Virus record (IMG/VR): IMGVR_UViG_3300033153_009093
Location: 1 to 64,000 of that record
Source of the DNA: a virus
Length of the DNA stretch: 64,000 nt
Reading direction: 5' to 3' (one strand)
In this document: positions 10,678 through 64,000 of the stretch, in pieces
Layout: every line of letters begins with the position of its first letter
Numbering within the stretch: position 1 is the first letter of the stretch
Translations under genes and position numbers: made by a program
The notes under the pieces: model-generated
The model's database searches: none
What the model saw: the letters and a program-made list of their open reading frames with translations, nothing else
Told to the model about the DNA's origin: nothing

Positions 10678-11226
10678 TTATCGTTTATTTTTTTTTAAAT
10701 AGATCCTTAATTTCTTTTTATATTGTTCCAAAGGGTTAGCTTTTTTAACGATAGATTTACTTTTTTTAAAACTGTACGGTTTTGCTTTGCAAAAATTTTT
10801 ATCTATACTAGCGTAGTACAAATGTTCATTTTTTTCAAGAATCAATTTCATTTTTGTCGCATCCTATCCAGTATCTTCAAATGTCATCTATTTTGCATGA
10901 AAAAATAATACATCGCTGTTATCAGGCTATGATAATATTGTAAATACATCGGCTAATCTTCTAGCGTATAAATCGACATTATCTTTTTTTATTACTAAAC
11001 ATCTTAATTCTTTTTTCTTATTTTTTGTTTTTTTACAATTCTCATCATTCTAAGGACTATATTGTAATTTCTTTAATAATTCCGTAGAAATGTCAGTATT
11101 GCAAATTGTCGCCCTATTTTTTGCAGATTGATAAATTAAATAAGATTCTTCAATTCTATCAGGATTTTGCTAACTTAATTCGCCAAATAAAGTCATCGTA
11201 AGAATTAAAACCATTTTAAAAAACAT
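10678..11226 (-). CDS. SleB/Hydrolase_2-like cell-wall hydrolase, 182 aa with TAG read through (5 TAG, 0 TGG)
   Basis: Missing from ORF track. MTLFGELS*Q..., LQYSP*ND (family QFSCWN), FFHAK*M, DTG*DATKM...EHLYY; TAA stop; AAAGGG RBS. Confidence 0.75.
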
Positions 11227-11281
11227 TAATATTACCCTTTATTAAATAAATTTTAATTTAACTTTACATCATTGTTCAAGT

Positions 11282-12103
11282 TCACTCTTCTTCTACTCCT
11301 GCTTCGGGATTTATTATCGAATTATCCGACCTATCACTAAAATCATAATATTCTCGTCTTCTATTGTTATTTTCGTAGTAAGTATGCTTATTAGCTTGTC
11401 TAAGTCCAATGGCACCTAAAGTTAATACATCCGCTTTATTAAGTACCGCAGTCACGACATTATTACTTAATCCAAAAACCCCATTCCAAAAACTCTGTAA
11501 ATCGGATTTAGGGGGGATATTTGTTACAATTGGAGCAGGGGTACCTTTTTTCTTTTTTGATGCATTAGAAGTAGCTACTGCTCCCGGAGAGCCTATATTA
11601 ATAGTAATAGCACCGGTTGAACCATTGGCATTTATTGTTATAGGATTTCCATAAGGAGAAGGTAGAGGATCAACATTTATACGATCTTGTTCAGGAACTT
11701 GACTTCTTTCAATTAATTCCGATAATTGTTCAGTTATAATATCCACTCCTTCTAAAACCATATCAGAATCATCATTTAACCTAACAGAGGGTGGGCGTTT
11801 TCCTTTGCCTTTAGTGTTAAAATTATAAGATCTATCCGGAATTTTTCTATTTAATGTTCCTTGTGAATTATGTTCATCCTTTTTGCATTCGTAAAATCCT
11901 TTTCGTTGGTTACTATATGCCCTTGCAGTTTTATTACGTTCTCGAATTTCTACAATTTCAACGGCATTAGTCCCTAATTTTATTTGTTTATCTGAATATA
12001 TTTGTTGAGTTTGAACGTCCTGCCATGCTGTAAATTTTTCCGAAGAACCAGCGCAACCAGAAAATATTAAAGGAACAGTATATAATAATAATCTAATTTT
12101 CAT
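11282..12103 (-). CDS. Predicted lipoprotein
   Basis: Signal peptide with lipobox FSG-C17; uses TGG. Confidence 0.65.
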   Translation of the reverse strand: MKIRLLLYTVPLIFSGCAGSSEKFTAWQDVQTQQIYSDKQIKLGTNAVEIVEIRERNKTARAYSNQRKGFYECKKDEHNSQGTLNRKIPDRSYNFNTKGKGKRPPSVRLNDDSDMVLEGVDIITEQLSELIERSQVPEQDRINVDPLPSPYGNPITINANGSTGAITINIGSPGAVATSNASKKKKGTPAPIVTNIPPKSDLQSFWNGVFGLSNNVVTAVLNKADVLTLGAIGLRQANKHTYYENNNRRREYYDFSDRSDNSIINPEAGVEEE

Positions 12104-12135
12104 TATTTTACCTTTTCAATAATTTTATATTTATT

Positions 12136-15557: not shown

Positions 15558-15926
15558 ATGTCAAAAACAATTAGAAGAAAAACTAACTATGATATAGATA
15601 AATATATTTATCATTGGGAAAAATTTGTTATTTTAAATAAAAACTTCCATTTTATTTTATTAGAATATTATGAATATAATAAAATATACAACGGTACCTA
15701 TTTTTATAAAAATAATAAAAAATTTATTAAAGAATTAAATAAGTATCATACTGATAATAATACAGAATATAATGCGCCTAAATATTTTAGAAAACAATTA
15801 AATAAAAAATATAGAATTAAATGTAATCGAATAATGGTCAATTTAAATAATGATAGAAAAAATAATAAGTTTGATAATCTAGTTTTTCCTTTACATAAAA
15901 AAACTATGAACTGGGAATGGTTTTAA
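15558..15926 (+). CDS. Basic hypothetical protein
   Basis: MSKTIRRK start, AAGGA RBS, C-terminal WEWF. Confidence 0.6.
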   Translation: MSKTIRRKTNYDIDKYIYHWEKFVILNKNFHFILLEYYEYNKIYNGTYFYKNNKKFIKELNKYHTDNNTEYNAPKYFRKQLNKKYRIKCNRIMVNLNNDRKNNKFDNLVFPLHKKTMNWEWF

Positions 15927-16173
15927 ATACTAACCAAAAGGTATATGATGAAAATTTATTTTCAAAACATAGCATTTATTATAATAATATATTATCATTT
16001 TTTCTGGGAGTTTCAATATAGAATAAAAGCTACTATTATTTATTATAGGATAAAATTATTAAAATATTTAATTTTTTAAATAATATCCATATTGTAGTTT
16101 TATATATTGGCATAAAATACTGAGGAAAATCTATTATGAATAATATAATGAGAAAAAGAAGAATAAAAAAAAT

Positions 16174-21164: not shown

Positions 21165-21389
21165 TTGATAAGGATAATAAATAATATTATGAGTCTAACA
21201 AATCAAAGTTATGATGATATTCCAAAAGTTATATGTAAAGAAATAGGAATACTTATTCGTGCTACTGAGTTATTAGCACAAGTACACAATGAAATTTCCG
21301 GGCCGAGGGGCCTTTCGGGAGGAACAATTATTTCAAAAAAAACATCTAAAGAAATTGAAAAATATTTTCAAGAACATATATTCGATTAA
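21165..21389 (+). CDS. Hypothetical protein
   Basis: Short ORF; true start probably ATG at 21189. Confidence 0.45.
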   Translation: MIRIINNIMSLTNQSYDDIPKVICKEIGILIRATELLAQVHNEISGPRGLSGGTIISKKTSKEIEKYFQEHIFD

Positions 21390-21997
21390 ACTAATTTACA
21401 AAATCTAATATTGAATACTTGAGATATTCTATTAATGATACTTTCTTGATTCAATAAACGTTCAGTTTCAGGTATAAACTATAATTCTGTATGTGAAGAT
21501 TTTATAGAATGATATTCGCCCGGAAATTTTCTATAATAATGTAATTTAATAATTGAGTCTATTTCTTTGCTCATAAACCCATAAGTATCATAGTCTGTAA
21601 CATAATCAATCTTTAAATCATAGAAAATACTACCTAAATTACCTTTATTAATTTTTAATATATGAGGTATAATAAAGAATTTTATCTTTGGTAATTCTAC
21701 ACCGGTAGTATTTTCAGTTTTAACAAGCATCGTTCGTATATCTACAAACTGATTATTATATAATACCCTGCCGTTAAAATATTGATCAGGGTATGTTATT
21801 AATAAAACAGGAATAGTATTTGAGTCAGTTATATTATTAGCATCTTCAATATTTATTATAAATTTATATTTAATATTAGTAATTACAGTAGAATCAAATG
21901 AATCCCCGTTCTACATTATAGAAGTAGAATCTTCGTGAATGCCATCAATTAAATATTTTTTTAAATCGTTTACGATTACTTTATATTCGTCTATCAT
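21386..21997 (-). CDS. Putative virion protein, 203 aa with TAG read through (2 TAG)
   Basis: ATG 21997; TAGs at 21911-13 and 21479-81; TAA at 21386. Confidence 0.7.
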
Positions 21998-27800: not shown

Positions 27801-29249
27801 ATGAAACATAACATTTTTAATATTATTAAATATCCAGATAAAAAAGAATCTGCGAAAGCATTTGATAATAGCGCCTTATTAAATAATGTAAAAATGTAGG
27901 AAACTCATACTCATTTTTACATTAGCAATTTTCCCGGAACCTTCGGAAATGTGCAAAATAAAAATAATAGAATATATGATTAGAATACATTGACTTATGC
28001 AGCTAATTAGTTCAATGATATAAAAGAAAAAAATCCGTATTTTTGTTATATATTTGATGGTCATAAAGATGATGATAGCTATGAATTTATTGCAGGAAGA
28101 GTATTGCAATTAAAAATAGATCATAGAAATAAATGCATTTTAATGGATTTAAAATTAAATAAAGGGGCAAAATCGTAGCCAGCTATCAAAAATATTATAG
28201 AAGATGGTGACCCGGTAGGGGCTAGTATGAGAATTATAACGCCTAACGTTATAACTTCATCAAAAGAAGAATTAAAAAATATAAATAATAACATTACATT
28301 TTTAGAAGATGATAATAGAAACATTGCTAAATTAATGAGCAATGACAGTGAAATAGAATATATTACAGGGGAGGCGTTTATATAGAGATTCGATATTACT
28401 TGGTTTCCGTCTTTTAATTATTCTTTTGTAAATAAACCTTATAAATTTGACCCGATTTATAATAAAAATGAATCTTTAAATTTTAATAATATTAACGATA
28501 AATTCAAAGATATTAAAACTGCCGCAACTAACTTTTCATCAGATGTAATATGTAGTACAAATTCTTGTGAATTCAGAAAGCAAATAAAAAATTTTGTTGA
28601 TTTAATAAATATAGACAATTCTATAAATAATATTAATAATAAAAATTTATATGAAAGTATGTTAAATTTTTCATATATCAACCTTGATTAGTTTGATTTT
28701 AGTAATATAAAAGATGCGGAATATTTAAAAGATGCTTTAGAAGAAAATAATTATACTGATATTAATATTTATAAAGAAGTAATATCAAATATTATAGAAA
28801 ATAACATTATAAATTATATTATAGAAAAAAGTGTTTTTGATGTCGATATAATTAATAAACTACTAATTAATACAATAAACGAAATAGTTGATGAAGATAA
28901 TATATTTTATCAATTAATAACTTTAAATTATTTACATTTTACAATATTATCCACTATATTACTTTCAACAAAAAATAATGATAAAGTTGATAATATAAAT
29001 AATTTAGTTGATGTTATAGCAACTAATATAACAAAGAATGATACTATTGATAGTTTTGTTTTTAAATTATATAATGATTTAAAAAAAGAAATTAATTTAT
29101 ATGATTATATAAATTATATATTTATGTATCTATATAAATATATTAATAATTATGGTGATAAAATATCACCATTATTAATTATAAACGAAGCTGTAAAATT
29201 ATTTACAATTAATAAATCATTGACTATAACAAAATATATTAATAAATAA
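27801..29249 (+). CDS. Prohead protease (T4 gp21-like) with C-terminal extension, 482 aa (6 TAG, 1 TGG)
   Basis: Missing from ORF track. GTFGNVQNKNNRIYD*, DGH, GDPVGASMR (Ser motif), FI*RFDITWFPSF. Confidence 0.8.
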
Positions 29250-31027: not shown

Positions 31028-32155
31028 ATGTCTAAATTAATCGATATTTCTAAAATTCCACTTGATAAAAAAGAAAGTTTGGAAATTGCAGGATTTACTT
31101 CTAAGGCAAGAGAAAGGTACAAATTGGCACCGGCTAAATCAGATAATTTAAGTATTATGCTAGGGAATATATATAAATATTTTAAAGTATTTAATGAATC
31201 TAATGCGGCAACAGTATCATCTGACATTGAACCATTTAGAGATTTAGCCATCCTAGCGACTACTAAATTTTATACACAAAACATATTAGATCAAATTTGT
31301 TCAGTGCAAACAAGTGATTCTCCTTATGGATTGATTACATATGTTGATTTTCAATATGCAGATGACCATGCACCTGATACAATTGTTGCAGGTGATAGCA
31401 TAGCCAGAAGAAGTAGAACTTATGGCGATCATCCGGGCGAACAAACATTATCCAGAAGAATTAAAACGAAGATTGAACAAAAACCTATTACTGCCGGTGT
31501 TCGGTCTATTGAAGCATCTTATTCTCTTGAATCATTTTTAGCATTAAGCTCTGTCCAAGGGCAAGCAGGAGCAAAGCAGTTTCTTGATAGAACTTACTTA
31601 GATGTAATTGCTAATAAGTTAAGAGATGAAGCAGAATTTGCCGTTGTTGATGCTATGTATTCAAGCGTTTTACCTGCTCATACATTTACATTTGCGCACG
31701 ATACGACCGTTTGCGAAGAAGAAGAATGTCAAGCAAGACGATTCTTGGATAAAATTGAAGAGTCTGCTCAAAGTGTGTATGATAATAGAAAAGTATGGCC
31801 TAATGTTGTAATTGTCGGCTCTGATGCTCTTAAATTAATCAGAAGAGGAGATACTAAGATAATTAATAATTATAAAGCAGGCACTGGAGTACCTTCTTCT
31901 GTCGCCCGAAATTATTTAGGCGTTTTAGATGATAGATATGGACTATTATATGATCCAGAATTAACAGGGGCTATTTTAACTTAGAAAGATAATAGTACAG
32001 ATTATGGAGGGTCAGTAGTTTACACTTCCGTTGTTCCAGTTGCTATTACCCCGGCTATTACTGAAAGAGATTTGGCGACTTATAGAGTAATTTATACAGT
32101 TGATTCAGTAGATGTAATTCATCCTGAAATTATGGCGAGAATTGATATTGTTTAA
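31028..32155 (+). CDS. Major capsid protein, T4 gp23-like, 375 aa (1 TAG, 1 TGG)
   Basis: ICSVQTSDSPYGLI, ITAGVRSIEASYSLE, YLGVLDDRY; ILT*KDN matches gp23 FTVGYKG; TAA at 32153. Confidence 0.85.
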
Positions 32156-32727: not shown

Positions 32728-33060
32728 TTAGCGTTTTGTCAATAATATATCATATCGACCATCGACATTATTAAAATTAAGATTACATTTTTGTTTATAT
32801 TGTGATATTTTTTTATTAATATCATTCATATACTCTATAACTTCTATTTTCATAATTTTTTGATCCTGATATCTATTTTCATAACTCTATAAAATATAAG
32901 TATAGCTATCTATTATAGATTTACAATAATTAATATCAACCATATGAATTTCTAAATTACTAACATCATAACTTTTGTTATTCATATCAACGCTATATAA
33001 TATATTCGGCTAACTTAAAAAAATAATTAATAATAAACAATATAATAATTCTTTATTCAT
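32728..33060 (-). CDS. Secreted/membrane protein, 110 aa (2 TAG)
   Basis: MNKELLYCLLLIIFLS*PNILYS signal-like N-terminus; ATGA overlap with upstream gene; TAA 2 nt before cysC start. Confidence 0.65.
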
Positions 33061-33368
33061 TTAATATACCTACTATTTAAATCTGTTAATTCGGTTTCCA
33101 ACTAACGTAGTTCTCTTTTTATAGATATAGGCATTTCATCATTTTCTGAATATTTGTCACGTAAAGACTATATTCTTTCTTGTATATTTCTAATTTTATA
33201 TAAACTAGCAATAGCATTACATTTTTCTCCGATTTCCATTATCTGGCGTTCTAATAAAATCATCTCTGTTTTTTTTACAAATGATCTATTATAATTTATT
33301 AAATAACCGATAGCGGTAAACGTAAATAGTGTAATTGTAATATAAGATGCAATTTTACCACTATTCAT
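33057..33368 (-). CDS. TM plus coiled-coil protein (holin/spanin-like candidate), 103 aa (2 TAG)
   Basis: N-terminal TM; QERI*SLRDK...ELR*LETE; TGA stop overlaps next ATG. Confidence 0.6.
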
Positions 33369-33417: not shown

Positions 33418-33597
33418 TTATTCTTTTGAATAAATGCTGCTTGTAGTTCCTAATTTACGATACAGTGGTTGAAAATCATCTTTACTACAAGCAGCATTCT
33501 ATTCAGACGTGCTATCAGTATCACCTACATATATAGGGATATCAAATAATGTCAATGTCGTGCTATCCTAATTACTACTATCTCCATAATAAAACAT
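33418..33597 (-). CDS. Small protein, 59 aa (2 TAG)
   Basis: MFYYGDSSN*DSTT...DSTSE*NAAC; AAAGGG RBS; TAA stop. Confidence 0.55.
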
Positions 33598-38300: not shown

Positions 38301-38693
38301 TTAATTAATATAATTAGCTATAATATTTTTTACTTGCCGCCCGTTTACGCTACCATTAGGAAAATGTTTTATAACTTTTCCAATAGCGGCCATAGGGTTA
38401 ATTTTATCGAAGTCAATATTTTTTAAATATGAAATAATATCTTGTTCAGAAATTTGGACAGGAAGATATCCCATTAAAATATCCGTTTCAATATCAGCTT
38501 CAGATTGATCGGTGCAAGATTCTTTTAAAAATTTTAATGTTTTATTAATAACAGATATTATATAATCATCATCATAATTTTTATCTGACTTTCGTTGAAT
38601 ATCGAATATTAATACTCTTAATACTGATATTTTTATTTTATTTTTTAGTTTTAAAGCATTAGTTAAATCTACTTTAATTTTATTATATATCAT
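38301..38693 (-). CDS. GatB/YqeY domain protein
   Basis: IKVDLTNALK...SVLR, EADIETDILMGYLPVQISEQDI, G.VNG. Confidence 0.75.
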   Translation of the reverse strand: MIYNKIKVDLTNALKLKNKIKISVLRVLIFDIQRKSDKNYDDDYIISVINKTLKFLKESCTDQSEADIETDILMGYLPVQISEQDIISYLKNIDFDKINPMAAIGKVIKHFPNGSVNGRQVKNIIANYIN

Positions 38694-47178: not shown

Positions 47179-47220
47179 TAATTAGAAAGGGATTATTATA
47201 TAATAATCCCTTTCTAATTA
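47179..47220. repeat. Perfect 42-bp palindrome, convergent terminator
   Basis: taattagaaagggattattat|ataataatccctttctaatta. Confidence 0.92.
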
Positions 47221-49668
47221 TACTAAATTATGTAAATAATTTAACTTAGTAGTTTTATTTTTCATAATAAATCTTTTTATTTTATAATATTCATTTATCA
47301 TATTAATATCAAAATTTAAAATATTTGTAGAAAATGAAAATTTTGTCTCATATTCATCTTTATATAAAATAATATCTTTAGGATAATTATTTAAATAATC
47401 TGTTTTTTGTGTTAATATAACAATAACTTCTTTTTCTTTCGTCATGTTATTTTCTAATACCTTTATAGAATTAAACCATTCTATATTAATATAATCATAA
47501 GATATAACAGGTTCATATTTATCATCTAATAATTTCTAATTATTTTCCGCGATAATATTATCAGAATCAACCGAAGATATTGTAATAAACTTATCATCAA
47601 TCTTTATAGTTTCTCCGATATTGCTATAATAATTTACTGAATCATTATAATTTAAATAATAATTATTACTATTTAAATCAATCATAGATTTATTATTTTT
47701 ATTATATATACATGAATCTTCATTAAGCTCTATAAATAAAAATGTTTTATCATCTGATAAATGAATATTTTTATAAGGAACTTGAACATCTTCTATTAAG
47801 TTTTCATTATATTTACTCCGAAGAGAATCAACTATAATTTTATAATTATAAATTATTTTATAATTATCCTCTGCAATTTTATCAACTCCTATTCTTGTTA
47901 AATGTACTGAATTATTTTTGGTTGATTTTATGGGATAATATTTCAATCCTGAAATCGAAGTAACGTAATTCAAATTTCCTTGATAAAATATTTTATCATT
48001 TTTTAAATCAATAAATAATGTAAATATTTTATCATTTTTTAATAATTCTATATACTATAATTTATCGCCATAATATACAGCATCATTAACGGTTGTATCT
48101 GTAATATTTATAGGTATATTGATTTCGTTTAATATAGAATAATTTGTACCATCATTGCAGTATAGTTCAACAAAAAGAGTAGTATTATATAATGAATCTG
48201 TTGCATCAGTATTAATAAATTGAACCAAACTATATAAATTATCATTTATTTTATTATACTATCCATGTTCTGAAAATACATGGTCATATACAACTATATC
48301 AGTATATCCAATATCATTATAATTTATTTCCTTTGCTATTGAAATTTCTTTATCTTTAAATAGTTTATTATGATCTAATAAATCATAATATTTTTTATAT
48401 ACTTGTTTTACGTTCAATATATCAAAAGTATCATTATCAACATTTAAATATTTATCAAACATTATACAATTCTAATCACTATTATCTTGTATAATCTCTG
48501 CTATTTTCATATTTATCAAAGGGATATCAGTATCATTATCAAAATATTCCATTTCGATTTCGGTTCCAATAGTACAGTTATTATTATGATACTATAATTC
48601 ATAATATACTTTTGATATATCAAAAGATGCTAATAAATATAAATTAAGATTAACCTATTCAATATTTCCTATAATTACATTTTTAAATAATGTTGTAGTA
48701 TCATAATATATATTACATCTTAAATTTGCTGTAGTGTCTGAAGTAGTAAACAATAAATCTTTTAATACTTTATAATTCTATAATGTATGTTTATTTTTAT
48801 ATGATAATGTAAAATTCTAATTATTTAATTCTATATTATCATATTCATCGAATAATCCTATATTGGCAGTATTATCAATGTCATTTTCGTTAACAGTTAA
48901 TTCTATATTATTATCATTTTCGTTATATACTATCGGATATAACGTATTATTTGATATAGGAACATTGTCAGGCACTTTAAAAATTAAAGAATTTATTTCA
49001 TATTGATCATCAATTATTTCATTATAATTTGCTTTGTAATTAAAATCATTTTCTTGACCATTGTAAATAATAGAAAACTTTTTACCATGCGTAAATAAAT
49101 TTTTATACTTGTTTATATTTTCTACAACAGGAGGCGTACCGCCATCATTAAATGTTAAATAAAATATATTACTTGTGAACTAATTAGATCCATAATATTG
49201 TCTAATTGTTATAAAATATTCTCCCGGTGAAGAAAAATATTGAACGTTATAATTGTTATATGTATTAGTTCCGTATATTGTATCTGATGCGATATATGAA
49301 CCCGGTTGCCCTCCTGATGAATAATGCTAATAAAATTTCAAATTATAATTCGATGAACTTTGTGAAGGTTTAGTTATACTAACATATCCAGGACTGGATA
49401 TTTCGAATTTATACGTTCTATATGTATATGATGTAGAAGGATTATACGGAGGCGTACAAGCTATGGATGGGTCATTTAGATCAATAGTGTATGGTTGATT
49501 GTTAAATATTTGAGAGTAGCAAGGAATAGAATTGTCTAATTGTTTAATAACTTTTATATCGTTTGACATATTATCCAAATATTGTTTAGTTGGACAATTA
49601 ATTTTAAAATAATTTTTATATTCTGAAGTAGTATCACTAATATTTTTTATATAAAATAGACTATTCAT
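47218..49668 (-). CDS. Large putative virion/tail protein, 816 aa (10 TAG, 1 TGG)
   Basis: Joins four ORF-track fragments in one frame; no internal TAA or TGA. Confidence 0.8.
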
Positions 49669-50939
49669 TAATCATTCCTTATTTCTATTGATTTCGTTAC
49701 CTATTTATATTGTAATGGATAAATAGAATTTACGAATTTTAAATTGACATTACAATATTTATTTATTGCATACTTTTCATTGTCTGTAAAAAATATATCT
49801 TTAGTATCAAATAATAAAAGATGTGACTGAATATTTAATATTTTTATATTTATTTTATTTATTAAAGCAGAGGTGTCATATAAGTTTCCTAAATACTAAT
49901 AACTATCAACTGGAATATTATTATTAATAAATAATAATTCTAATTGTGATAAATATAATTTTTCAACATTGCCATATAAACCAACATTCAAATTTACATA
50001 GGGATTAATATCATTTTCTTCTATTTGAGAATTTAAAAAGCTTACATGAATTTTACAAGTTTGATCTTTTGTTAAATAAAAATACTCTTCTGTAGAAAAC
50101 ATATCTCCATTATCTGAACCTATATCGTAACTAGGCAAATCTTTATCTGGATATACAACAACTCTGGAAGAATTTCCCGCCTATGCATTTTCTTCGGTCA
50201 ATTCATCATTTTCATAATCTATATATTCTCCTAATTTTAACTTATACTATCCAGTGAAATTAGGAGTAAATTCTAAAGCTCTATATTTATATGATGATCC
50301 AAAAACTGGGCATACACTCCCAGCTTTATTAAAAGAAAAATCTAATATTAAAACATTTTCTCCTACTAAAGGTTTTTCTAATTGCGGCAACTGTAAAGTT
50401 TGTTCAATAAAAGAACTCTAGGTCTATTCAAATATATTAGATAATTTATTTATATCATTATCAAAAACTATATCAGGTTTTAAATATGATAATGTTATTA
50501 AATTCATAGCATTTTCGGCTATTAAAACGGAATCTACAAATTTTTTATTGATATTTAAAAAATTTTCCGTTAATAATTTATCTTTCTAAGTTGAATTATT
50601 AACCATATTTTTAATATAAGAAAGATCAATTATTCTATTTTCTCTTATAAATGTCGTATTATAATTATTTTTAATATCTAATTCAACTATAATATCATTT
50701 AAATTGTCAAAATTTCCAATAATACTATTATTTATTTTAACATTTGTAGAATCAGAATATAAATAATTAGGATAACAATTGTTAAATAAATAAGATGTAT
50801 CGGAATAGGATATATCTTTTTTATTTTTTATTTTATCAATAAAAATTAAATTAGTGGTAAATTTATCACTAATTTTTAAAGATTCGTATTCTTTTATTCT
50901 ATATTTTTTTATTGAATAATCTAATGTTATATCTTCCAT
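49668..50939 (-). CDS. Putative virion protein, 423 aa (7 TAG)
   Basis: Joins ORFs 50586 and 49896; FTG*YKLKL; TAA overlaps next ATG (TAATG). Confidence 0.78.
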
Positions 50940-51011: not shown

Positions 51012-54000
51012 ATGATACCACATTTATCAAAACTAACCAATATAAATGATCTTAATAATTTTGAACAATTATTTTCTTTCAAAAAATCAACGCAATTATT
51101 TATTATACCAAAAGTATATGATGAAAATAATCCTTATAAAAATGAATATAATGACGAATATTAGTTACTAATTTAGTGCGAATTGATAACTAGTGATACT
51201 GATTATTATAATTTTTTAAATAACTTTTTAACTGACACTGCAATATCTAATAAAGATTCTAACAATTTAGCATTATTTTCTATAGAAAATGATACTCTTA
51301 ATTTTGTAGATATGCATGTTTTAGAAACTGACAATAGAGCTAACTTTTCTATAAATTTAAAAACTGCACAAGATTTAATTATTGATGATATTAATGTTAT
51401 TGGTATATATTATACTCAACCAACATTTGTAACAATAAACGATGATATTATAAATAAAAATTATGGTGATATATTTACAGTATCAGTAAAACAATTAAGT
51501 TACGATGATTATAATAATAAATATACTAATCATTATATGTTTCCAGATTCTTAGGATGATTCTGAAGCGTCTAATCCTACAAATTTTGTATTGCCCCGTG
51601 ATATCAGTGATGATTATTATAAAGGTTCATATAATACAAGAACCACTTTACCAGATGAAAAATCCTAGTTAAGTTATAGCTCTGATAATTTTAATACTAA
51701 AGATAGAATAAAACAATATAGAACAGAGTACTTTGACCATGTAATACCTGATATAAATAATGATCAAAATATTGCAATAGCCTATAAAACAATTCCTATA
51801 GCACCTTATATGAATATAGATATTTATATAAACGGTATTTTGAATGAGTATAAATTAAATAATATAACATCTATTCAGTAGATAGATAATAAAATTTTTC
51901 AAATCGTTAAAGATGGTATACTATATAAATGTAATATGCATTGGGAATCTGGTACATTTTACAATTTAATCGAATTAGAAAACTTAAATATTTATTTAAA
52001 TGGCTTATTAAAATATCACAATAATATAATAAAATACGGCAGTAATATAATAAGCGAAAAATAGTCTTTTGGATATGGCAATAGTACTTATGATGATTGT
52101 AACATTTATATAAATGATCAAGAATTTTCTGAAAGTAATTCGGTATAGGGTACTGGATCTTATTATATAACACATAGTAATATTTATAAATTTGGAATGG
52201 ATATGATACAGCCTGTATTATACGAATTTAAAAATTTTATTATATTTCCTCGAAAACGATCAATATTACCTATAAATATAAAAGATTCTTATTAGAAAAA
52301 AACAGTATATAATGAAAATGATTCAGTTTATGTTGCTAATAGAGAAGAGGATTCTATTATTAAAATAAACAATTTTAATAATATTAAACTATTAGAAAAT
52401 GATGCCAAACTAATATCTGAATCAGGAACTAATGCTTTTTATAAAATGAAATCCAATTTAGCATTTGAACAATTATCCGATGATATTTCTTTAATAACAA
52501 TATATAATAATATCGGAGATGTAAACGGTGCGTTTAAAAATGCAAATGAAGATTCAACTAACAATATATTTTTAAAAATTGATGATTATGATTATGATTT
52601 AACAACAGAAAATATAACCTTAGAGTTAAATATAGATTATTCTGAAATAAAACAATTTTTACAAAATGATAAATTTATTAAATTATTAAATAATAATAAT
52701 AGTTATTATTTAAAATAGAATAATTATCTTTTTAATTCGATAACGGAATTAAAAAATAATTTTATGGATATTCTAAATAATAATTTTAATTTGGATGAGA
52801 TAAATTTGTCAACATAGACAACAGAAAATAGTAATTATATAGATAATATCATAGGTATTCAAGATACTATAGATTCTGATATATTTGCTATTAGCAATAA
52901 TACTGAACAACTTAAATTAGGTTATAATTTTATAGAGTTAAATTCATCTTTAAATTCTATAACGAATTTAACTAATCATAAATCAGAATTTAAAATTGAT
53001 CAATTTATAACTTCAGATGGTACAATATATCAAGAAAATGAGATAAATTATAAACTATATAATATTAATACGGATATATCATTTAAATTAATAATTACTG
53101 CTGAAAAAGAATTAGCGGAAAATTATATCAATGATAAGATTATTAATATTGAATATACTATTGAAGATATTAATCAATGTGAGACATCATATATAGTAAA
53201 TAAAAATTTAGAAGATTTATCAAATATTACACATGATACGACTACTATAAATTTTATAAATGATAATACATCTATTACATTATCAAATATTGATAGCACT
53301 TCAATAACATTTGAAGAAAATATAAATTTAAATGAAGAAATCATTCTTAATAAAGATGAAACTTTAAATATCGATATAACTCTTTCTAATTTTAATTTAG
53401 ATAAAGATATTAATCATTATGATATATTTTCAAGTTATAAATATAATGATTTTATTGATATTCATATTAAAGATGATTATTATAATCATAATATTTACCA
53501 TTTGGATTTAATAGGAAAAACTTTTAACACTTATAAAGTTAATTTATCTAATGAATATAAATTTTATACATTTGGAAATTTACCAAAAAAATGCAAAACA
53601 TAGTTATCAACTTAGTATGATTATGATGAAAATAATACTATAAATGAATTTTATGGTAATTATAATAATGCAATTCTATATAATTTAATGGAACAAAATT
53701 CAGCGAAGTATTTTATAGAAAGATATATAGCAAATGAAGCGTTCACTGAACCCGATAGTAATAATACTCCTTGTGATGCATATTATATAAAACAAAATGA
53801 TACCGATTTAGGCACCCTTCCTACATCGCAATCAATTGATGTATAGCCGGTAGATAAAGAGGCTCATACATTGTTTATTAATGCCGCTGTAAATGATTTA
53901 ATAGATGGTGGTAATACTATGTATACAGATTATGAATAGCGATACTATTTAGCTAAATATGGCGTTAATTATGGTGCTATATTAAATGGAGTATCGTCCA

Positions 54001-54773
54001 CTGAATAGATTGTAGGTAATACTATAAAGCCTATAACATAGTAGGTTGATAACGATGCTCAGTTATTTGATAAAGATAACTGCAATGGTTATAATGTTTA
54101 TAATTATTATGATAATACGACCTCTAACAATTTATGTTTCACTTTTAATAAATATTCCGACTCTACTAATCAAATAGAATCATCTTACATTGATTCCACT
54201 AGTATAGATACAATAGAATATGAAAATAGAATAAATGAATACTTCAGTAATGGTTATCCTATTAATAAAAATTTTGATTACGGCAGTCCATTATTAAATG
54301 ATTATAAAAATAAAACTGGAGTAATATATTTTTGCGATTTTTCTTCTCGTTCAATACATCAATCATATGGTGGTACTTTATAGAATCATATTATTGATTT
54401 TGATTACGAACTTCATTCAAATGAAATAGAATTTTTGTCAAATAATTTAACAGATATATTAACTAAAATATATAATGAAAAAAGAAAAATGGGACAAATT
54501 GTAATAGATAATGATTTCAAATATAAATATATTGAATGCGGGTCGTATATTTATGATATCCCTCGATCCTCTATGAATATTAAATTAGAAAGAAAACATT
54601 CAACTATAACAGTGTATATAAATGATATTATTGTAGATGAAATACTTACTAATGATGATAAATCATACATTTCTAATATTATAAATTAGGGCAATATATA
54701 GGCCGGAAATAAGACTATTAATATGTATAAAACTATAAACATAGTAACAAAAAAATCAGGATTATGGTGTTAA
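51012..54773 (+). CDS. Giant putative virion/tail protein, 1253 aa (20 TAG, 2 TGG)
   Basis: ATG 51012 to TAA 54771 with no TAA/TGA; next ATG at 54775. Confidence 0.82.
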
Positions 54774-54774: not shown

Positions 54775-55896
54775 ATGATAAAAAGGTCATTTTATGATTT
54801 TAAAAATCAATTTACAAATGAATCTATAGATAATGTAAAAGTGCCTTATAATGTTCTTTTAAAAAGTTTTAATACAGATGTAACCACATATGATGATATA
54901 TTAAATTATTTTGATATAGATATTTCTTCTGATGGTACTAATATATCTTGTGACATTACACAAAAGGAAGATACTAGTTATATATACCCTGAACCAATTA
55001 TTTATGATTTTTCAATACCTAATGAAATTGATTATATATATGATTAGTATCCGGCTTCAGATGATCCTCAATCTCATTAGATAGGGGTAAAATTACCTTC
55101 AGATAATACCTCTGTGTTAATAAATAAACCTTTTAAAGATACTACAATTACATTATCAGAGACAAGAAAGATGCACCCTACGCCATCTATCGAAATGTAG
55201 TATTCTTCATATAATGACCATTTAATATTACCTAAAGAAGAATTGGTATAGGATGAAAATTTTACAGAATTCGCAACTGATATTTATAAATTCGCAAATG
55301 ATACAACAAAAACTGAATATGCTCATAAATATGAATTATATTTATTTAATCCATCTACATTACTTTCATTAAATAAAAATTTTAAGTTTGGGTTTCATTT
55401 TGATTCTAGTTTATTAGGTGTAAAAAATACTAATGATTTTCAATGGAATCCTAATAAAAAATACTAGCCAAATAATACTAATGTCACAAATGATATAATT
55501 GGCAGTTATTATGATTATGATTCTAATTATAAACTAAATGGATAGTTATTAATAAATAGTGATATTACATCTTATATTGGTTCTTATAACTTAAACATAG
55601 ATACTACTGTAATTATAGATAGTGAAAATTATAAAATAAATAGAGCACATGTACCACCTATGAGATATTTAAGTATTGGGGATTTTGATACTGATGAACC
55701 TGAAAACTATTATCAACCAATTATTGCTTTTAATGATAAAAATAATTATAGACATGTTAAAATTGAACACGAAAATCATAGTCAATTTACCGAAACGACT
55801 GGTATAAATGCTATTTTAAATTCATTAAAGAATGAAACTCATAGTGAATTTTTAGTTGAATTTGATGGATATAATGAAGTAATAGAATTAAATTAA
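54775..55896 (+). CDS. Putative virion protein, 373 aa (6 TAG, 1 TGG)
   Basis: Continuous frame to TAA. Confidence 0.78.
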
Positions 55897-55924: not shown

Positions 55925-58711
55925 ATGTCAAATATAAACTATGATAAAGATATTTTAATTTATCCTATAACAAATAATTTATCAGATATAACTAATACTG
56001 ATATTACAACATCACATGCTATAAACGTTAATATTCTTAGTTTAGTTAATAGTACTGGAATAGCTATTTATAAAGATAATACTTAGGTATTTAAAGATTT
56101 CAATAATGAAATTGAAAACAAATAGATATTTAATGATAGCACAAATACTGACATGACAGTATATTCCTATAATATTTATAATATATTTATTGATGATACA
56201 GAAAATATTAAAGCATATTTATATAACAATAAACGAAAAAAGATCAGTGATATATTTGAAAAAAATATTAATATAGATTATAAAATAACAATAGATATTA
56301 CTGGAATAGATTTATCTGATCCGAAAAATTATGAATTGGATAGTACAATTGTATTGGATACAACTTCATAGATAGATAATACAGTAATAATAAAGCATGT
56401 ATCAGGTATGTATAATAGAAAATATCAAATGGATTCATATACTAATATATATGAGTTTACAACTTCTGATTCGACCAATTTAGTTTATAATTTGTATCAA
56501 GATTCAGATAATAGATTATTTGATTACAATAACAATCTTACTTTATATGTAACAGATTCGACAGGTAATCAAGTTTCAAATAAACTAGAAAAAAATTATT
56601 TAATAAAACATATAAACTGCGAAACTCCTTTAATGTCACCTATTGTGTCGGAATATATTAATTATAATACTTAGAATGCGAGTCCAACTAATTCGAATAC
56701 ATATGAAGGTGATTGGCATAGTTGTTGTGTATATACAAAATATATGAACTTAACAATTCAACCTTATGGTACTTTTCAAAAAAATCTTAAATATTTCGAT
56801 ATTTATAATAATTATAACTCAACCGGAGCAATAAATTTAACATATAATGTCCCTTTATTAATAACTTCATATTTATCGCAAGGTGATAATTGGGATGAAA
56901 ATGTAAGCGGTGAATTAGATACAACCGATACAATTATAGAACATGATATTCATCCTTCTAATATTTATAATAATCATAATCTCATAAACTATAGCGAAAA
57001 TTCTATATTTTTATAGTTTAAATAGAATGATAATATTACGTCATATAATTATGATGATAATATGCATTCTTTAAGAATTAGAAATAATAGAGAAGGAAAT
57101 TTAGATTTGGTATATTTTCCTAATGACTATAATAATACTCCTACTTATTTTGATGATCATACTGACACTGGCGCATATGGTGAGGAAAATATATCTGGGC
57201 CAGAGTAGTATACTACGTCCAATTTTATAGAATAGAGGAAATATAATTTACAGTATAATAACTGGGATAACATAAATGAAGAAGTTATAATTGATTCATC
57301 TTATGAATAGAAATATTCTGAGCAACAATATTATTAGTAGGAAAGTAGAATACCAATAATGTTACGAATTGAAACTAATCACAAGGTAAGATTTAAATTA
57401 GAAATGAATGGAGCGGAAGATTTTGATGATAGAATTAATAATTTAATAGATATTGTAATAAATCCTAATGAACCTTTCGAATTAAGACAATCAGAAGATT
57501 TTTATATTAATCCATATACTTATTATTTTGTAACTTTTTAGTTTGAATTATTAGATACCACTACTATAAGTTTAGAAACCGCTCAAGATATAGAATTTAA
57601 TGTGTAGTTAACTCCTATTAGAGATGATAGATTATATATAATAAAAGATGATATATCTTTTCAACACGGAGATGAAATAGAATAGTTTTCGTTACAAGGT
57701 GAAGTTCACCATGATCCAGAATATATATATAATATATCTAATATAAATAAAATGACAATGGATGATACTATAAAATGTAATGATCCTTATATAAAATTTG
57801 ATAAAGGTACTAATGATTTAAGTATTTTGATGACAGAATTTTCTTCAAATGATACAACTTCTAATGTATCATTAAATTTTAGAACTTATAACATTGATGC
57901 TACATCTATTCCTGATTTTACTAATGTAAACGATTTAAATATTGGTGATATTGTACATGTATATGGATATAATTTAAACGAAACTTATATAGTTGAAAGT
58001 TATATTGTCCCTGATAATACTAATATAACTCAAAGTGAAGTTTATAAAATTTCTTTTAAAACTGCAACAGGTGTATGTTCTACTCCGGTAGTTGTTAGAG
58101 ATGATGAATATGGAGAATAGACTATAACTTGCATTGGGGATTGTAGGCCGTCATATACGTATGTAACGAGCAATTATGCTGATGGTAATACAATGCACCA
58201 TATTACATACCAAGACGGTTTAAATGTCGCTCAAGGCGAACCAGTCGAAGTATTGACAGTTCATCCTAATACTAATAGAGGATGTAATGTATATATGGAT
58301 AACACAGAAGCAATAGTGTGCATGGCACCATATGCAATAAGATATGACACAGAACAAACCGGTGTATTTTTTGCATTTTCTTGTATAGGTGATGATTTAT
58401 CATATGCTTCATCTGAAGTTATAGAAAGTGAAAATTACCCTGATCAAAGTATGTGCCCTGTAGGTAATTTGTATTATTATTATGCAGGTAGAACATCGTA
58501 GAAATGGTATGAGCATAATTATGCGAGAGGAATAGGATCTTATAACGCAACAAGATATTATCGAAAAAATGAAGGCTCTTAGATAAATTCAGGGACAAGC
58601 TCTTATTCATATTTATCGGTAAGTTTAAATGATACAATTGAAGTTATGCAACAAGATACATATTCAAATTATGACCATTCATGGTCAATTAAAAAGAAAC
58701 GATAGGCGTAA
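55925..58711 (+). CDS. Large putative virion/tail protein, 928 aa (18 TAG, 5 TGG)
   Basis: Joins six fragments; YKDNT*VF, RTS*KWY, NEGS*INSG; TAA followed by ATG at 58714. Confidence 0.82.
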
Positions 58712-58713: not shown

Positions 58714-61700
58714 ATGGACTCTACTATATTAAACAATACAACAGTATATGCCGTAAATTGTAATGAGATTTATAATTATTCTCCAAAAAGAAAAATCGAA
58801 GTAATTAATGATAATAATAATTTATCTCCTTATGATAAAAACTTCACATATTTAGTAACGTTTCACCCTATAAGTCCATACTCTTAGGATCAAACGGGTA
58901 CCGATCATTTATCACCTAATGATATAAAATGTATAGATACTAATTTTGTAAACGTTGAAGATTATCATTATTTGAATAATGATGCGTTTGAATAGTGGAA
59001 TGATTCAACAGAGTCTTTATATCCTATTTTAAATTATGATACCACATGCAATTACAATAATGCTTCATTAAACACTGGAGATTTTTTAAATTGTTTTTCA
59101 TTATTTATCTATAAAAAGAAACTACATTAGGTGATAAATGATAGTACATCATATCCGGCATTAGTTCATTGTAAAATTGATTTGGATGATATAGAGTTGC
59201 AACATCATAAATATTATCATACAATATTAACCAGAAATGATAATATTTACACTATGCATTTAATTCTCGATAAATATTCTTTGTTTTCCACTTATGACCC
59301 TGAACATATTTATAGATTGCCATATGAAAGACATAATACATCTACAGATAAAATATCTGATGATATAACCACAATAGAAGCTGACACCATTGCTAATGTC
59401 GCAATAGTTAATACAAATGAAGAATATGCTATTGATTTTACATATGATAATAATGAAAGATATATAGAATTTACATTAGATGAAACTTGCGATTTAGTAA
59501 TAGAACTATTACCAGACGAAAGGCATAAACATATGAGCTGTCAGGTAGATGAACATTATAGTCCTATTAACTCTACTTCATATGGAGGTATTGGGTTAGA
59601 TGGTCATAATTAGAGTTCTATAACAAATATCGATACTTTAATTGATGAAGAAACAAATAATATCTCAAAATCTTCCGAAAGTGGCAGATTTACTACATTT
59701 TTAAATTTATCACCCGGTAAATATAAATTTATAATATATGTCCCTTTTAATTATGAAAACTATCCTGATGTAGCATTTTAGGAATATAGTTTTTATAATA
59801 CTAATACTGACTATAATTCATTTTATAATAAGCCCGAAAGTGTATCTTTTAAAATATATAAAGAAAATAAAAAAGAAAATAGCTATTTTAATTGGAATTA
59901 TAATTATAAAACTGATACTGTTATTTTATCAGAAAATATCAATATATCTGAAATAATAAATGATAATAAATTAGTTTATGGTTATTTAGAAAGATATCCT
60001 CAAAATATACTAAATAATAATTTATTATATAAAAATTCTTTTAAAGGTTATATTACTGAAACTTCATATTATAGAGATCAAGTATATTTAAGAAAATTTA
60101 ATAATACTATACCATTTAACAGTTTTCAATATATAACCGATTATACCGCTTCTTATAATGAAAATTTAAATCAATATAATTTAATTAGACCTGATTTTGA
60201 AAATATTATTAATAACCCTGACACCGAAACACCTTTTTCAAATCAAAATAATATGAAAGCTGTAATCAATAATAATAATAAAATACCTTTAAAATCTTAT
60301 TTTAATATTATTGAAAATAGTAATTATTCAACAGAATATAATGTTACTTAGGCAAGGCATATCTACGGGGCGGATGAAGATGAATGTTCAATGCCAAGAG
60401 TCGAATATTTTACAAATTTTATCATTGATGACATTATTTTAATAGATGAAAGTGTAATAGATACTAATATAATAAATAATGCATCTAATAAAATTACACA
60501 TATAGAATATCCCAGAACGATTGATTCAAGTTCAAATATCGAATATACCGGCAATGACATTGTTATTAATAACAAAACATTATTAATATTTACATTTGAT
60601 ATTATGAAAAATTTAATTTCCTCTAATGGTTATACTGTATATGATCAGACAAAATTTTTAATGACATCAAATTATATATTAGAAGAATATGATGAAAATA
60701 AAACATATCAATCGTATATTGATAGTACTGACAATTACATTCAACCGATAGATTTAACTATCAACGGTTTAAAGAAATTAGATATTTTAAATTCTTTAAA
60801 CAATTATATTAATACTGTTAAGGATTCTACAAATAATTTATTTGTAACAAAATTTATTATTCAATGTTTTCGAGATTCAAGATATATGTTTATGTATAAA
60901 ATATCCAATAAAACATTATTAACAGATCGAAATAATTATTATGATTATCAATTAGATGGTAAATGCATTACTTCATCTGATTTGTTTAATCCTGTATTTG
61001 ATAATATTATATCGCCTTATCATACGAATTTTGATTATAGGATGTCATTTTCTCCTTCCTATATATCAGGATATTAGTATACAAAAAAACCTGAAAGATA
61101 GAAAGGTTTTACAGGTAATCATTATGTATATAATGGATTTTATTATTCAACAGAGGTGTAGGAAGGAGAAAAAACTATAGTATTATTATATTCTAATGAT
61201 TTATATGATGAGGATTTTGATCCAGTTCCATTAGATAAAATTTATAAATTAACTACACCTGATTATTTGTCAACCTCTTAGGATGATATTTATTTAAATA
61301 ATTTAAGTTATGATGAAATACATATAACAGATTTAAATAAAACAGTATATCTAAAAATGAAAGTGGATGATTATATTAATAAATATGGAAATTTACTTTC
61401 AAAATATATAGAAAGCGAACTATATGAAGATGGAACAGTATTAGCTAATTTTTCTTATGATCCAAATAAACATTATTATATTGAATTATATGACTCAACT
61501 ATTAATGATAATATTGTAGTAGGTGATTTTTAGCATTTTCAGGGGTCAAAAAAAACTAGAATTCCAAATTATGAAATAACCGAAGTTGATAGCACAACGT
61601 ATAAAGTAGATTATACCAATGTAAATACTAACGATATAAATTTATATATTGCATTAGATTTCACTGATCCTATATCTGATAAAAGTAAATTAAATTAGGC

Positions 61701-62085
61701 ATTAGCGTTATTTGAATATGGTCATAATTTTGAGATGGAAAATGGTTATTGTCATACATTACCTACAATAAAAACTGATGGTAAAAAAGATTTATTTCAA
61801 TTAAAATATGAAGAAGAATTTAATGATTATTAGGCATTTTATTAGTAGTACCCTTTAATAAAGCATGATATTGTTTCAAGGCAAAATGATTATAGTAATT
61901 CATATATGTACAATTTAATAGAATAGTATAATTATGAAATTGGAAATTCTTCTATAGGTTCCTATGATGATACATATAATGAATTTGTGATAACAGCATA
62001 GTCTACTTAGGGTTATATAGATTAGTTTTTTTCTAAAATAAACGTTGTTTATGATAACGATAAACGAATTATTACAGATTTTTAA
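58714..62085 (+). CDS. Giant putative virion/tail protein, 1123 aa (19 TAG, 2 TGG)
   Basis: Continuous frame to TAA; NDY*AFY**YPL. Confidence 0.82.
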
Positions 62086-62107
62086 TAAAAAATTAAATGG
62101 TTTTTAA

Positions 62108-64000
62108 ATGAAAAATTTAAGAAATATTCCTTCAAATATATATTTTTCAAATTTATTATCTGATATAGAAAATAAAGATTGTACCTCTGTATTTAAACTA
62201 AATAATAAAAATTATTTAGATATAACTATTCCTGTTTCCGAATTATTGCAAAATAATAATAAAGCGATAACTAATAGGCATATTCCTATACAAGATGACA
62301 ATACTTATAATGCCTTTTATCAATATTATAATTATACTGACAATGATATAAAAGCAATCCCTGACATAAAAAATGAATATCCGGTCACTTCTTAGTATCC
62401 TGAGAATCATTCTGATTAGGTAGGGTCGGATGGTACTATTGCAATTGATATGAAAGACTATCCGGTTGATAATTTAGAATTGACATTGTATAATAGTTAT
62501 AATACGGTACCTAAAGAATAGTAGGATGATAGTCCACAAAATTATATATCCACATTAAGAAATATATCAGGAGCGGAAACTTTAAATGGTTTTAAAATTG
62601 TAAATGATAGTTCCTTTGATACTCATAGTAAATTAGCAAATTATGATTATTAGGTTAATAAATATTCTTATAGCTATACTTATAATAATATGTATAATCC
62701 AGTAAATCTTTATGAATTAGAACCGGGGTATTTTGATATATCATGTTCTAGTTACGCAATGAAGAATCATATATCAAAGTAGGATGAAGAAGGTTTATAT
62801 ATTTATTATAAACTTATTGACACTAAAGAAATAAGTAAAAATAATGATATTTTTGAATAGGATATTTCTTATAATTTTAATGATAAACAGTAGATAAATA
62901 CTATTCAAGGATTTTTATATAACTTTAAATAGTATGCAGTTGATGAAAGTAGAATTTCTACTCCTGTATATGATAGAAATTATTATGGCACATTTAATTA
63001 TCTCCATTGTGATACTTCGTATTTTTTAAATGATTATAATGAAGATACTGATCATTTTGATGAGGTAATTTTAACAGCATATTCATTTAACGAAACATTA
63101 AATGAATAGATACCTATAGGAAATCGTAGTTTATTTTCCCCTGATGTAATTGATTTAGAAAAATTATTACCAATTAAACCAACATATACAAATAAAATAA
63201 AACTGACTATAACTCAAAAATATACATTTGATGGAGTTGAAACTGACAATACTGCATTACTTGACGATATCGTTTTTAAGAATATAAATGGCGAATTGAT
63301 AAATGAAAAGTATGCGGTAGATAAAATTACCAATACATTACAATATAAAAGATGTGCAGCATGTAGTAAATTTTTACCCGGCTTTAATATTGATTTATTG
63401 AATAATAATAAAAGTGTATTTCATACTCAATATGATAATAAAACATTTGCCCGTTTCAAAGATTATGAAATAGTAGTACCTTTCACCTCTTTTATTACAG
63501 AAAGATTATTTATAAAAGATAATGATTATTATCCCTATTTATATGATGTAAATTATAATGATAATAATTTACAATTTTATGTAAACTCAGATAGTTACAA
63601 ACATAGTGATATTTTATATAAAGGTATTAATAATATAGATGTATTATTAGTAACTTACGATTATAATAATATTATAGATTACAATGATTCAACTATTATA
63701 GAGTCCTACAATTATAATAATATTAATAATAAAATTATTTCTGATTTCACAACAGATATCAGTTCCGTTATTGATAATTATTTTATTAATATTAGATTAA
63801 ATTATCAACAGAGTATAGAAAACATTGTAAATTTTATGACTAAACTAAACTATTATACTGATGTATATAATAATTATGATTATGATTTTAAAATACCTCA
63901 AATAAATAGTATTACGGCAATTAAAAGAATTCTTACATATAAATATGACAATGACTCAACAGTGACAAAAGAAATAACAAAGGAAAATACTAATAATATT
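62108..64000 (+). CDS. Putative virion protein, partial, >630 aa (10 TAG, 0 TGG)
   Basis: Frame open to the window end when TAG is read; LNE*IPIG. Confidence 0.8.

Follow-up and report, generated by a model that had tools for sequence, protein, structure and literature searches.

The window analysed here comprises bases 1-64000 of the 180,374-bp virus record IMGVR_UViG_3300033153_009093, which is rated complete by CheckV and has a genome G+C content of 24%. To judge from its gp17-type terminase and gp23-like head protein, the virus is a distant T4-like phage. A block without TAG codons (253..10574), which follows the standard code and writes tryptophan (Trp) as TGG, served as an internal control, and 23 genes whose frames contain TAG start within 10678-64000. 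This report concerns how the TAG codons of these genes and of others in the genome are read, and the part that a phage tRNA with anticodon CUA, tRNA(CUA), and a phage tryptophanyl-tRNA synthetase (TrpRS) may have in reading them. Genes were called mechanically, with TAG as a sense codon and TAA and TGA as stops. The TAG-bearing genes of the window are listed below by window coordinates, strand, length in amino acids (aa) and counts of in-frame TAG and TGG; L001 and L002 are relatives of the phage.

10678..11226, minus strand: TAG-bearing gene, 182 aa; 5 TAG, 0 TGG; no Pfam match
15917..16123, plus strand: small TAG-bearing open reading frame (ORF), 68 aa; 2 TAG, 0 TGG
21386..21997, minus strand: TAG-bearing gene, 203 aa; 2 TAG, 0 TGG; kept beside the large terminase (TerL) in L002
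22018..22851, minus strand: TAG-bearing gene, 277 aa; 1 TAG, 0 TGG; orthologues of 275-277 aa in L001/L002
22947..24758, plus strand: large terminase of the T4 gp17 type, 603 aa; 9 TAG, 0 TGG
27801..29249, plus strand: head-module gene, 482 aa; 6 TAG, 1 TGG; orthologues in L001/L002
29275..30975, plus strand: head-module gene, 566 aa; 3 TAG, 0 TGG
31028..32155, plus strand: major head protein, gp23-like, 375 aa; 1 TAG, 1 TGG
32728..33060, minus strand: TAG-bearing gene, 110 aa; 2 TAG, 0 TGG
33057..33368, minus strand: TAG-bearing gene, 103 aa; 2 TAG, 0 TGG
33418..33597, minus strand: small TAG-bearing ORF, 59 aa; 2 TAG, 0 TGG
35010..35552, minus strand: TAG-bearing gene, 180 aa; 4 TAG, 0 TGG
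35542..36339, minus strand: TAG-bearing gene, 265 aa; 4 TAG, 0 TGG
36343..37470, minus strand: TAG-bearing gene, 375 aa; 7 TAG, 1 TGG
37499..37891, minus strand: TAG-bearing gene, 130 aa; 2 TAG, 0 TGG
38690..39325, minus strand: TAG-bearing gene, 211 aa; 1 TAG, 0 TGG
47218..49668, minus strand: large virion-type gene, 816 aa; 10 TAG, 1 TGG
49668..50939, minus strand: TAG-bearing gene, 423 aa; 7 TAG, 0 TGG
51012..54773, plus strand: largest gene of the window, 1253 aa; 20 TAG, 2 TGG
54775..55896, plus strand: TAG-bearing gene, 373 aa; 6 TAG, 1 TGG
55925..58711, plus strand: large gene, 928 aa; 18 TAG, 5 TGG
58714..62085, plus strand: large gene, 1123 aa; 19 TAG, 2 TGG
62108..64000, plus strand: gene crossing the window end and ending at 64423, 771 aa; 12 TAG, 1 TGG

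The terminase gave a weak Pfam Terminase_6N match, retrieved 671 phage terminases by tblastn and matched gp17 in the Protein Data Bank (PDB). The product of 31028..32155 matched the major head protein family PHROG 138 (E = 1.6e-12), and a weak Gp23 Pfam match was seen for orthologues in relatives; a PDB sequence search with this protein found no match. Pfam and PHROG searches on 20 TAG-rich genes returned almost no matches, and the genes at 27801..29249 and 47218..49668 were without any.

Together, the 23 genes amount to 9,876 aa and hold 145 in-frame TAG, 15 TGG and 188 CAA+CAG codons. The first-pass annotation, made from the letters of the window, had arrived at 23 genes that sum to about 9,700 aa, with about 142 TAG, about 14 TGG and a longest product of 1253 aa, and the recount bears this out. 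Its remark that glutamine (Gln) codons are still common in the presumed late genes was likewise correct, the six TAG contexts that it quoted are all present, and the early genes do use TGG normally (10 in the Hen1-PNKP fusion gene at 7080-9209 and 5 in a UvrD-like helicase gene at 45632-47173). ORFs of at least 100 aa covered 69.7% of the window when read with table 11; the figure was 90.7% once TAG was taken as a sense codon and 73.8% once TGA was, so that in the comparison of coding densities that the annotation had called for, density rises only with TAG as sense (0.70 to 0.91; TGA as sense, 0.74).

Frames were interrupted by TAG alone, never by TAA or TGA, and TAG codons were evenly distributed along the genes that bear them. 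Over all genes the stop is TAA in 181 and TGA in 42; both codons still terminate in this genome. Genome-wide, the genes with at least two TAG (n = 48; 23,200 codons) had 1.21% TAG, 0.14% TGG and 2.1% Gln codons, compared to 0, 0.86% and 2.3%, respectively, in the TAG-free genes (n = 152; 28,515 codons). The depletion of TGG (33/23,200 versus 245/28,515 codons) was highly significant (Fisher p = 1e-32), and tyrosine (Tyr) codons were not depleted alongside TAG (7.1% in TAG-bearing versus 6.6% in TAG-free genes). The TAG-free genes contain 1,300 TAGs off-frame and zero in-frame. Two coding regimes therefore coexist in one genome, with about 150 TAG-free genes that write Trp as TGG and about 70 genes in which most Trp is written as TAG. 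The TAG-free class covers replication, nucleotide metabolism, RNA repair and the phage's own TrpRS, and the TAG-writing class includes the terminase, the major head protein, large virion genes, a TnpB gene and a DUF5662 gene. The proposal of TAG=Trp in a late program needs one correction, in that TAG is not strictly confined to presumed late genes, since the TnpB and DUF5662 genes also use it.

Two genes in a TAG-free, TGG-using region (G000:C1:168279-168719 and 174113-174307 (-)) each hold a single TAG 3-4 codons before TAA. This TAG may be a real stop early in infection that is later read through.

The amino acid opposite TAG

The meaning of TAG was examined in homologue columns of three proteins. 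The DUF5662 gene, which lies outside the window (contig 123991-124443), carries 5 TAG and 0 TGG, and opposite its TAGs W is found in 91, 117, 120, 120 and 119 of 120 homologues (57-71% identity). All five W-conserved columns of this protein are TAG, whereas conserved Q and Y columns hold ordinary Gln and Tyr codons. In a comparison of the terminase with seven distant T4-type terminases, W stands opposite the TAGs at aa 134 (6/7), 276 (7/7) and 286 (7/7), and T4 gp17 itself has W at the position of aa 276; another TAG column is F in 7/7, and none is Q. The TnpB/Cas12f-like TnpB gene (contig 122520-123851; L010:18520-19851), with 5 TAG and 0 TGG, has W opposite its TAGs at aa 82 (58 of 100 homologues) and aa 97 (91 of 100); one further TAG column is mostly Y. 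On TAG readthrough, all three proteins align end to end with their homologues, and Q was never the consensus opposite TAG in the columns examined. The W-dominated columns (5/5 in DUF5662, 3/9 in the terminase and 2/5 in TnpB) uphold the first-pass annotation in its choice of Trp over Gln. Several database homologues of TnpB are fragments that resemble table-11 calls broken at TAG. A window gene at 27194-27691 was also considered as a DUF5662 homologue and rejected; it has no bearing on the test of W columns.

Codon exchange among relatives was analyzed with L001 and L002, which come from independent ENA and Logan assemblies, and with two whole relatives, G002 and G003. At 38 TAG sites of four head genes, the partner codons in L001/L002 were TAG (27), TGG (9), CAT (1) and TTC (1). 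The 236 aligned TAG sites in the comparison with G002 had TAG 83 times, TGG 46, TAT 33 and TTT 10 as partners, and the 167 sites aligned with G003 had TAG 41, TGG 26, TAT 19 and TTT 14. CAA or CAG stood opposite TAG at 0/38 sites in the four head genes and was absent from the top nine partners in G002 and G003. CAA codons were partnered by CAA, AAA, GAA and CAG, and TGG codons by TGG, TAG and TAT. Because the same sites are TAG in the independent assemblies L001/L002 and in G002/G003, an assembly artefact, which the first-pass annotation had named as a way to be wrong, is ruled out. When the non-TAG partners of TAG were scored in a likelihood test against each amino acid's empirical substitution profile, W came first, above Y by 70 (G002) and 30 (G003) log-likelihood units (lnL) and above Q by 244 and 148. 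As read from these columns and exchanges, Trp is the meaning of TAG at the level of selection.

Among the terminase's close relatives in the public protein set, both Q and W occur opposite TAG. Since the L001/L002 genes reproduce their public protein records only under TAG=Q translation, the Q residues opposite TAG in these records are TAG codons. Public proteins of relatives (P0002-P0014, L001, L002) were called with TAG=Q, and Gln thus stands where Trp is most likely made; JGI calls (L004, L005) split the relatives' TAG genes into fragments.

tRNA(CUA), the synthetase and their clade

ARAGORN detected a single tRNA in the genome, with anticodon CUA, a length of 74 nt and an encoded CCA (contig 108714-108787 (-); Rfam, 59 bits). 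Its acceptor end consists of C1-G72, U2-A71 and C3-G70 with discriminator U73. In bacteria, the Trp identity set is G73, A1-U72, G2-C71, G3-C70 and anticodon CCA, that of Gln is G73, U1-A72, G2-C71, G3-C70 and U35, and Tyr identity involves A73, C1-G72 being the archaeal and eukaryal Tyr determinant (PMC9976931). The phage tRNA has none of the listed bacterial Trp and Gln acceptor determinants, nor A73 of Tyr, and U35 takes the place of Trp C35. Because these acceptor features are absent, the host TrpRS, glutaminyl-tRNA synthetase (GlnRS) and tyrosyl-tRNA synthetase (TyrRS) would be expected to charge it poorly. When four clade tRNA(CUA) were aligned, the cloverleaf was preserved, 17 of its 22 pairs showed compensatory changes and C1-G72 was invariant, position 73 being U, U, U and C. 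The tRNA(CUA) of two relatives (L091:14600-14690 and G002:C1:112953-113043) is 91 nt long with a long variable arm, in which the stem covaries and the loop TTAATT is conserved; this genome and G003 carry a shorter version. Pattern scans returned 1 amber-suppressor tRNA from IMG/VR and 72 from metagenomes, none of them related to the phage tRNA(CUA).

A single synthetase gene was identified by Pfam tRNA-synt_1b; it encodes 316 aa (contig 134073-135023 (-)) and contains neither TAG nor TGG. The 15 members of its family share HIGH, KMSKS, the tryptophan-pocket motif YP-LQ--D and four cysteines (Cys), all invariant. In a PDB profile search with this family, 13 of the top 14 matches were TrpRS, the best being 2g36 from Thermotoga maritima (E = 3.5e-24), and the best TyrRS had an E of 9e-6. 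An AlphaFold model of the synthetase (predicted local distance difference test, 86; predicted template modeling score, 0.88) gave the same picture, as among the Foldseek matches listed all were TrpRS, with 2g36 first. The four Cys (C230, C253, C258 and C261) lie in the C-terminal, anticodon-side domain and align with Cys of 2g36. By motif, profile and predicted fold, the enzyme is a TrpRS of the Thermotoga [4Fe-4S] type with putative cluster binding.

The TrpRS lineage shows conserved synteny on large phage contigs, its relatives having rIIB, dUTPase, dNMP kinase and RNR in kept order. TrpRS and tRNA(CUA) co-occur in 4/4 clade genomes examined, which are given here with size, G+C content, ORF coverage under table 11 and with TAG as sense, tRNA(CUA) and release factor 2 (RF2) where recorded.

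This genome: 180 kb; 24% G+C; coverage 0.70 to 0.91 (window only); tRNA(CUA) of 74 nt; no RF2
G003: 233 kb; 26% G+C; coverage 0.77 to 0.91; tRNA(CUA) of 76 nt; RF2 close upstream of the tRNA
G002: 276 kb; 29.5% G+C; coverage 0.75 to 0.92; tRNA(CUA) of 91 nt; RF2 close upstream of the tRNA
JGI contig (L091): 166 kb; tRNA(CUA) of 91 nt with long variable arm, in syntenic position

The tRNA(CUA) of the JGI contig was located by walking along the contig, and this relative has TAG sites in common with our genome. In G002 and G003, TAG-rich genes are likewise poor in TGG. TAG-rich genes write 89% of their Trp as TAG here, in the most A+T-rich genome, compared to 73% in both G002 and G003. G002 encodes 21 other tRNAs and no tRNA-Trp(CCA). 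Single-protein scans of IMG/VR with TrpRS and terminase found no relatives, whereas an alignment-based scan found some; at other phage TrpRS loci, no suppressor tRNA lay nearby.

The RF2 genes (G002:C1:111431-112543 and G003:C1:92519-93649) are uninterrupted and TAG-free and contain SPF and GGQ motifs, with TrpRS located elsewhere in both genomes. The syntenic spot is occupied by a 179-aa gene in this genome and, in the JGI relative, by a 183-aa gene with NUMOD4, as found in homing endonucleases. A 21.8-kb contig (L179, JAOZRH010000017.1; 29% GC) from a Candidatus Neomarinimicrobiota metagenome-assembled genome (MAG) carries a clade TrpRS followed by ORFs that agree in size and order with the rIIA/rIIB-like neighbors of TrpRS in the clade; probably this is phage DNA that was binned into the MAG, and it gives just a weak hint of habitat or host.

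Outside the window, this genome also encodes a full-length transfer-messenger RNA (tmRNA; G000:C1:171981-172339 (-), L013:7981-8339; Rfam RF00023, 100.7 bits, E = 6e-38) with the tag peptide ADDYAIAMAA, whose frame closes in TGA. A possible role is the rescue of ribosomes that amber readthrough has stalled or caused to run off the message. No tmRNA was found in G002 or G003, and the phage tmRNA had no match in the one MAG with a clade contig.

Readings of TAG and of its decoding

The observations converge on a reading that we hold with considerable confidence, namely, that the phage reads TAG as Trp in virion and other genes by means of its own tRNA(CUA) and TrpRS and thereby maintains two coding regimes. 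Extended to the clade, it is likely that a group of A+T-rich, T4-like jumbo phages uses TAG=Trp through a self-contained natural orthogonal pair, consisting of an Fe-S-type TrpRS that would accept CUA and a tRNA whose identity would lie in C1-G72 and a pyrimidine discriminator, with RF2 added in some members. That the phage TrpRS charges tRNA(CUA) with Trp is suggested by the co-occurrence of the two genes across the clade and by a tRNA that fits no relevant bacterial identity set. According to this model, the TAG-free genes, including TrpRS, would be read by host ribosomes under the standard code from the start, the TrpRS would charge tRNA(CUA) with Trp, and the charged tRNA would open the TAG-bearing genes to expression. 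Expression of these genes would depend on earlier expression of the tRNA and TrpRS. The two would act as a natural orthogonal pair, escaping the Gln mischarging known for E. coli tRNA-Trp(CUA).

Several observations weigh against this account. tRNA(CUA) and TrpRS are 25 kb apart, in separate modules, and a release factor was not found in this genome. Clear descent of tRNA(CUA) from tRNA-Trp was not seen, the molecule being no closer to any one isoacceptor, and the long variable arm of two relatives' tRNAs is a trait of bacterial tRNA-Tyr, -Leu and -Ser. After TGG, TAT is the second most common non-TAG partner of TAG in G002/G003, and an NCBIfam single-sequence scan of the synthetase ranked tyrS (40 bits) over trpS (32 bits), both far below cut-off. 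The T4 late-promoter motif TATAAATA was not enriched within 60 nt upstream of TAG-bearing genes (6/71, compared to 12/152 TAG-free genes), and the timing of the former as "late" is derived from their function alone.

Some of these points suit other readings. TAG could mean Trp with tRNA(CUA) being charged by a host enzyme, the phage TrpRS serving as a general auxiliary that boosts Trp-tRNA supply. The 25-kb distance and the other phage loci that have TrpRS without a suppressor tRNA nearby fit such an arrangement, and in the view of Borges et al. most recoded phages depend on synthetases of the host (10.1101/2021.08.26.457843). We nevertheless consider it unlikely, given a tRNA without G73, A1-U72, G2-C71 and G3-C70 in which U35 replaces C35, the presence of this TrpRS lineage with tRNA(CUA) in all four genomes, and the invariance of C1-G72 amid covariation; moreover, G002 with its 21 other tRNAs offers no tRNA-Trp(CCA) on which an auxiliary enzyme could act. 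It is very improbable that TAG is instead Tyr, inserted by the class Ic synthetase with TyrRS activity and a tRNA(CUA) that arose from tRNA-Tyr via G34-to-C, although the variable arm, the TAT partners and the tyrS match lean this way, as do C1-G72 as an archaeal/eukaryal Tyr determinant (PMC9976931) and a phage TyrRS:tRNA-CUA pair on record that inserts Tyr (PMC12636597). What decides here is that columns opposite TAG in DUF5662 are invariant W while Tyr-conserved columns carry TAT, that TGG rather than TAT/TAC is depleted alongside TAG, that the likelihood test places W 30-70 lnL above Y, and that profile and fold searches put TrpRS far ahead of TyrRS, the discriminator being a pyrimidine and not A73.

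Two further readings were considered. TAG as Gln (NCBI table 15), the code of crAss-like and Lak phages, is the described norm among TAG-recoded phages, and the relatives' database proteins do have Q at TAG sites, but only through TAG=Q calling. With CAA/CAG never a common partner of TAG, Q never the consensus opposite it and a likelihood 148-244 lnL below that of W, this assignment is highly improbable; the TAG-bearing proteins would then hold 0.14% Trp and 3.3% Gln. That the TAGs are undecoded, reflecting pseudogenes, assembly errors or deliberate truncations, would account for frames broken under table 11, yet only TAG interrupts them, essential genes (terminase, head protein) are hit, positions are kept in independent assemblies and whole relatives, and a matching tRNA is encoded, which makes its probability close to negligible.

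Neighboring genes and known systems

The window also encodes an RNA-repair pair at 7080-10574 (-), both genes TAG-free: a 709-aa fusion (7080-9209) of Hen1, with its N-terminal domain and methyltransferase, to PNKP kinase and phosphatase, and an adjoining 386-aa PNKP ligase-domain protein (9414-10574). Beside the terminase, 25022-26269 (-) encodes a nucleotidyltransferase with PolyA_pol head and RNA-binding domains, from the family of CCA-adding enzymes and poly(A) polymerases; it gives this one-tRNA phage another function in tRNA maturation. The family B DNA polymerase (PolB) gene at 41272-43416 (-) matches the exonuclease domain and just the first part of the polymerase domain, and its neighbor at 39814-41268 (-) gives weak DUF723 and Vsr endonuclease matches, suggesting that the region 39814-43416 holds a split or interrupted polymerase. 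The frame at 43460-43594, said in the first-pass annotation to carry TAG and TGA and counted there as a gene, was rejected; it is a frame of only 40-43 aa lying in the intergenic gap downstream of PolB, and nothing marks it as a gene.

In the literature searched, phage recoding comprises TAG=Gln, TGA=Trp and TGA=Gly, and TAG=Trp is described only for Balanophoraceae plastids. Borges et al. reported only TAG-to-Gln and TGA-to-Trp in phages with a code unlike that of their host, and explained the limited set by easy co-option of host GlnRS and TrpRS (10.1101/2021.08.26.457843). Among the phage suppressor tRNAs tested in a 2025 preprint, GlnRS and TyrRS were paired with tRNA-CUA and TrpRS with UCA only, and one phage tRNA gave UAG-to-Ala (PMC12636597). 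Our search of the literature for TAG/UAG as tryptophan retrieved the Balanophoraceae plastid work alone and nothing for phages. Within this literature, the TAG=Trp assignment is new for viruses, as the first-pass annotation had supposed for phages, although the general strategy is already known. If the assignment is true, a phage with its own synthetase can install a meaning that host enzymes would not supply.

The phage shares with table 15 phages (crAss-like, Lak and others; 10.1101/2021.08.26.457843, PMC9523058) a concentration of in-frame TAG in genes for structural and late functions, early genes that can be read in the standard code, and a tRNA(CUA); RF2 occurs in its relatives, as in some Lak and Agate phages. 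It differs in that TAG is read as Trp and not Gln, TGG and not CAA/CAG is displaced, and a synthetase of matching specificity is encoded. Table 15 calls of the relatives, by putting Q for W, would make homology searches and structure predictions poorer across the clade.

Closer in mechanism are the Jade phages, which carry modules of TrpRS, tRNA(UCA) and RF1 (10.1101/2021.08.26.457843), and the TrpRS:tRNA-UCA pairs of AP1 and HF2 (PMC12636597). There, as proposed here, a phage TrpRS and a suppressor tRNA put Trp at a former stop, with the machinery genes in standard code. However, the codon here is TAG and not TGA, the anticodon departs from CCA at position 35 and not 34, the phage's relatives bring RF2 rather than RF1, and the discriminator is U or C instead of G73/A73. 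The contiguous Jade module has no equivalent here, with the tRNA 25 kb from TrpRS and no release factor found.

With the Balanophoraceae plastids (NCBI table 32), the phage shares the codon assignment and extreme A+T richness, and because of that richness TGG-to-TAG is the expected mutational direction. The plastid is an organelle with a single code, whereas the phage has two regimes in one genome and would bring a tRNA and a synthetase of its own to a host whose code is presumably standard.

E. coli su+7 (supU), a tRNA-Trp with CUA, likewise ties an amber-reading tRNA to the Trp system. It is largely mischarged with Gln, U35 being a GlnRS determinant. In the phage tRNA, by contrast, the acceptor end conforms to the rules of neither GlnRS nor bacterial TrpRS; if our reading is true, the clade offers a natural solution to the conversion of tRNA-Trp(CUA) into a Gln acceptor that is seen in E. 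coli. The best match to the phage synthetase in both sequence and fold is the Thermotoga maritima TrpRS 2g36, with which its four Cys align (C-x22-C-x4/6-C-x2-C); however, the two share only ~19-20% identity, and in the phage lineage the enzyme goes with a tRNA of anticodon CUA and its Fe-S cluster is putative. A natural TrpRS:tRNA-CUA pair with unusual acceptor identity, as this clade appears to possess, is a part sought for genetic-code expansion (PMC12636597).

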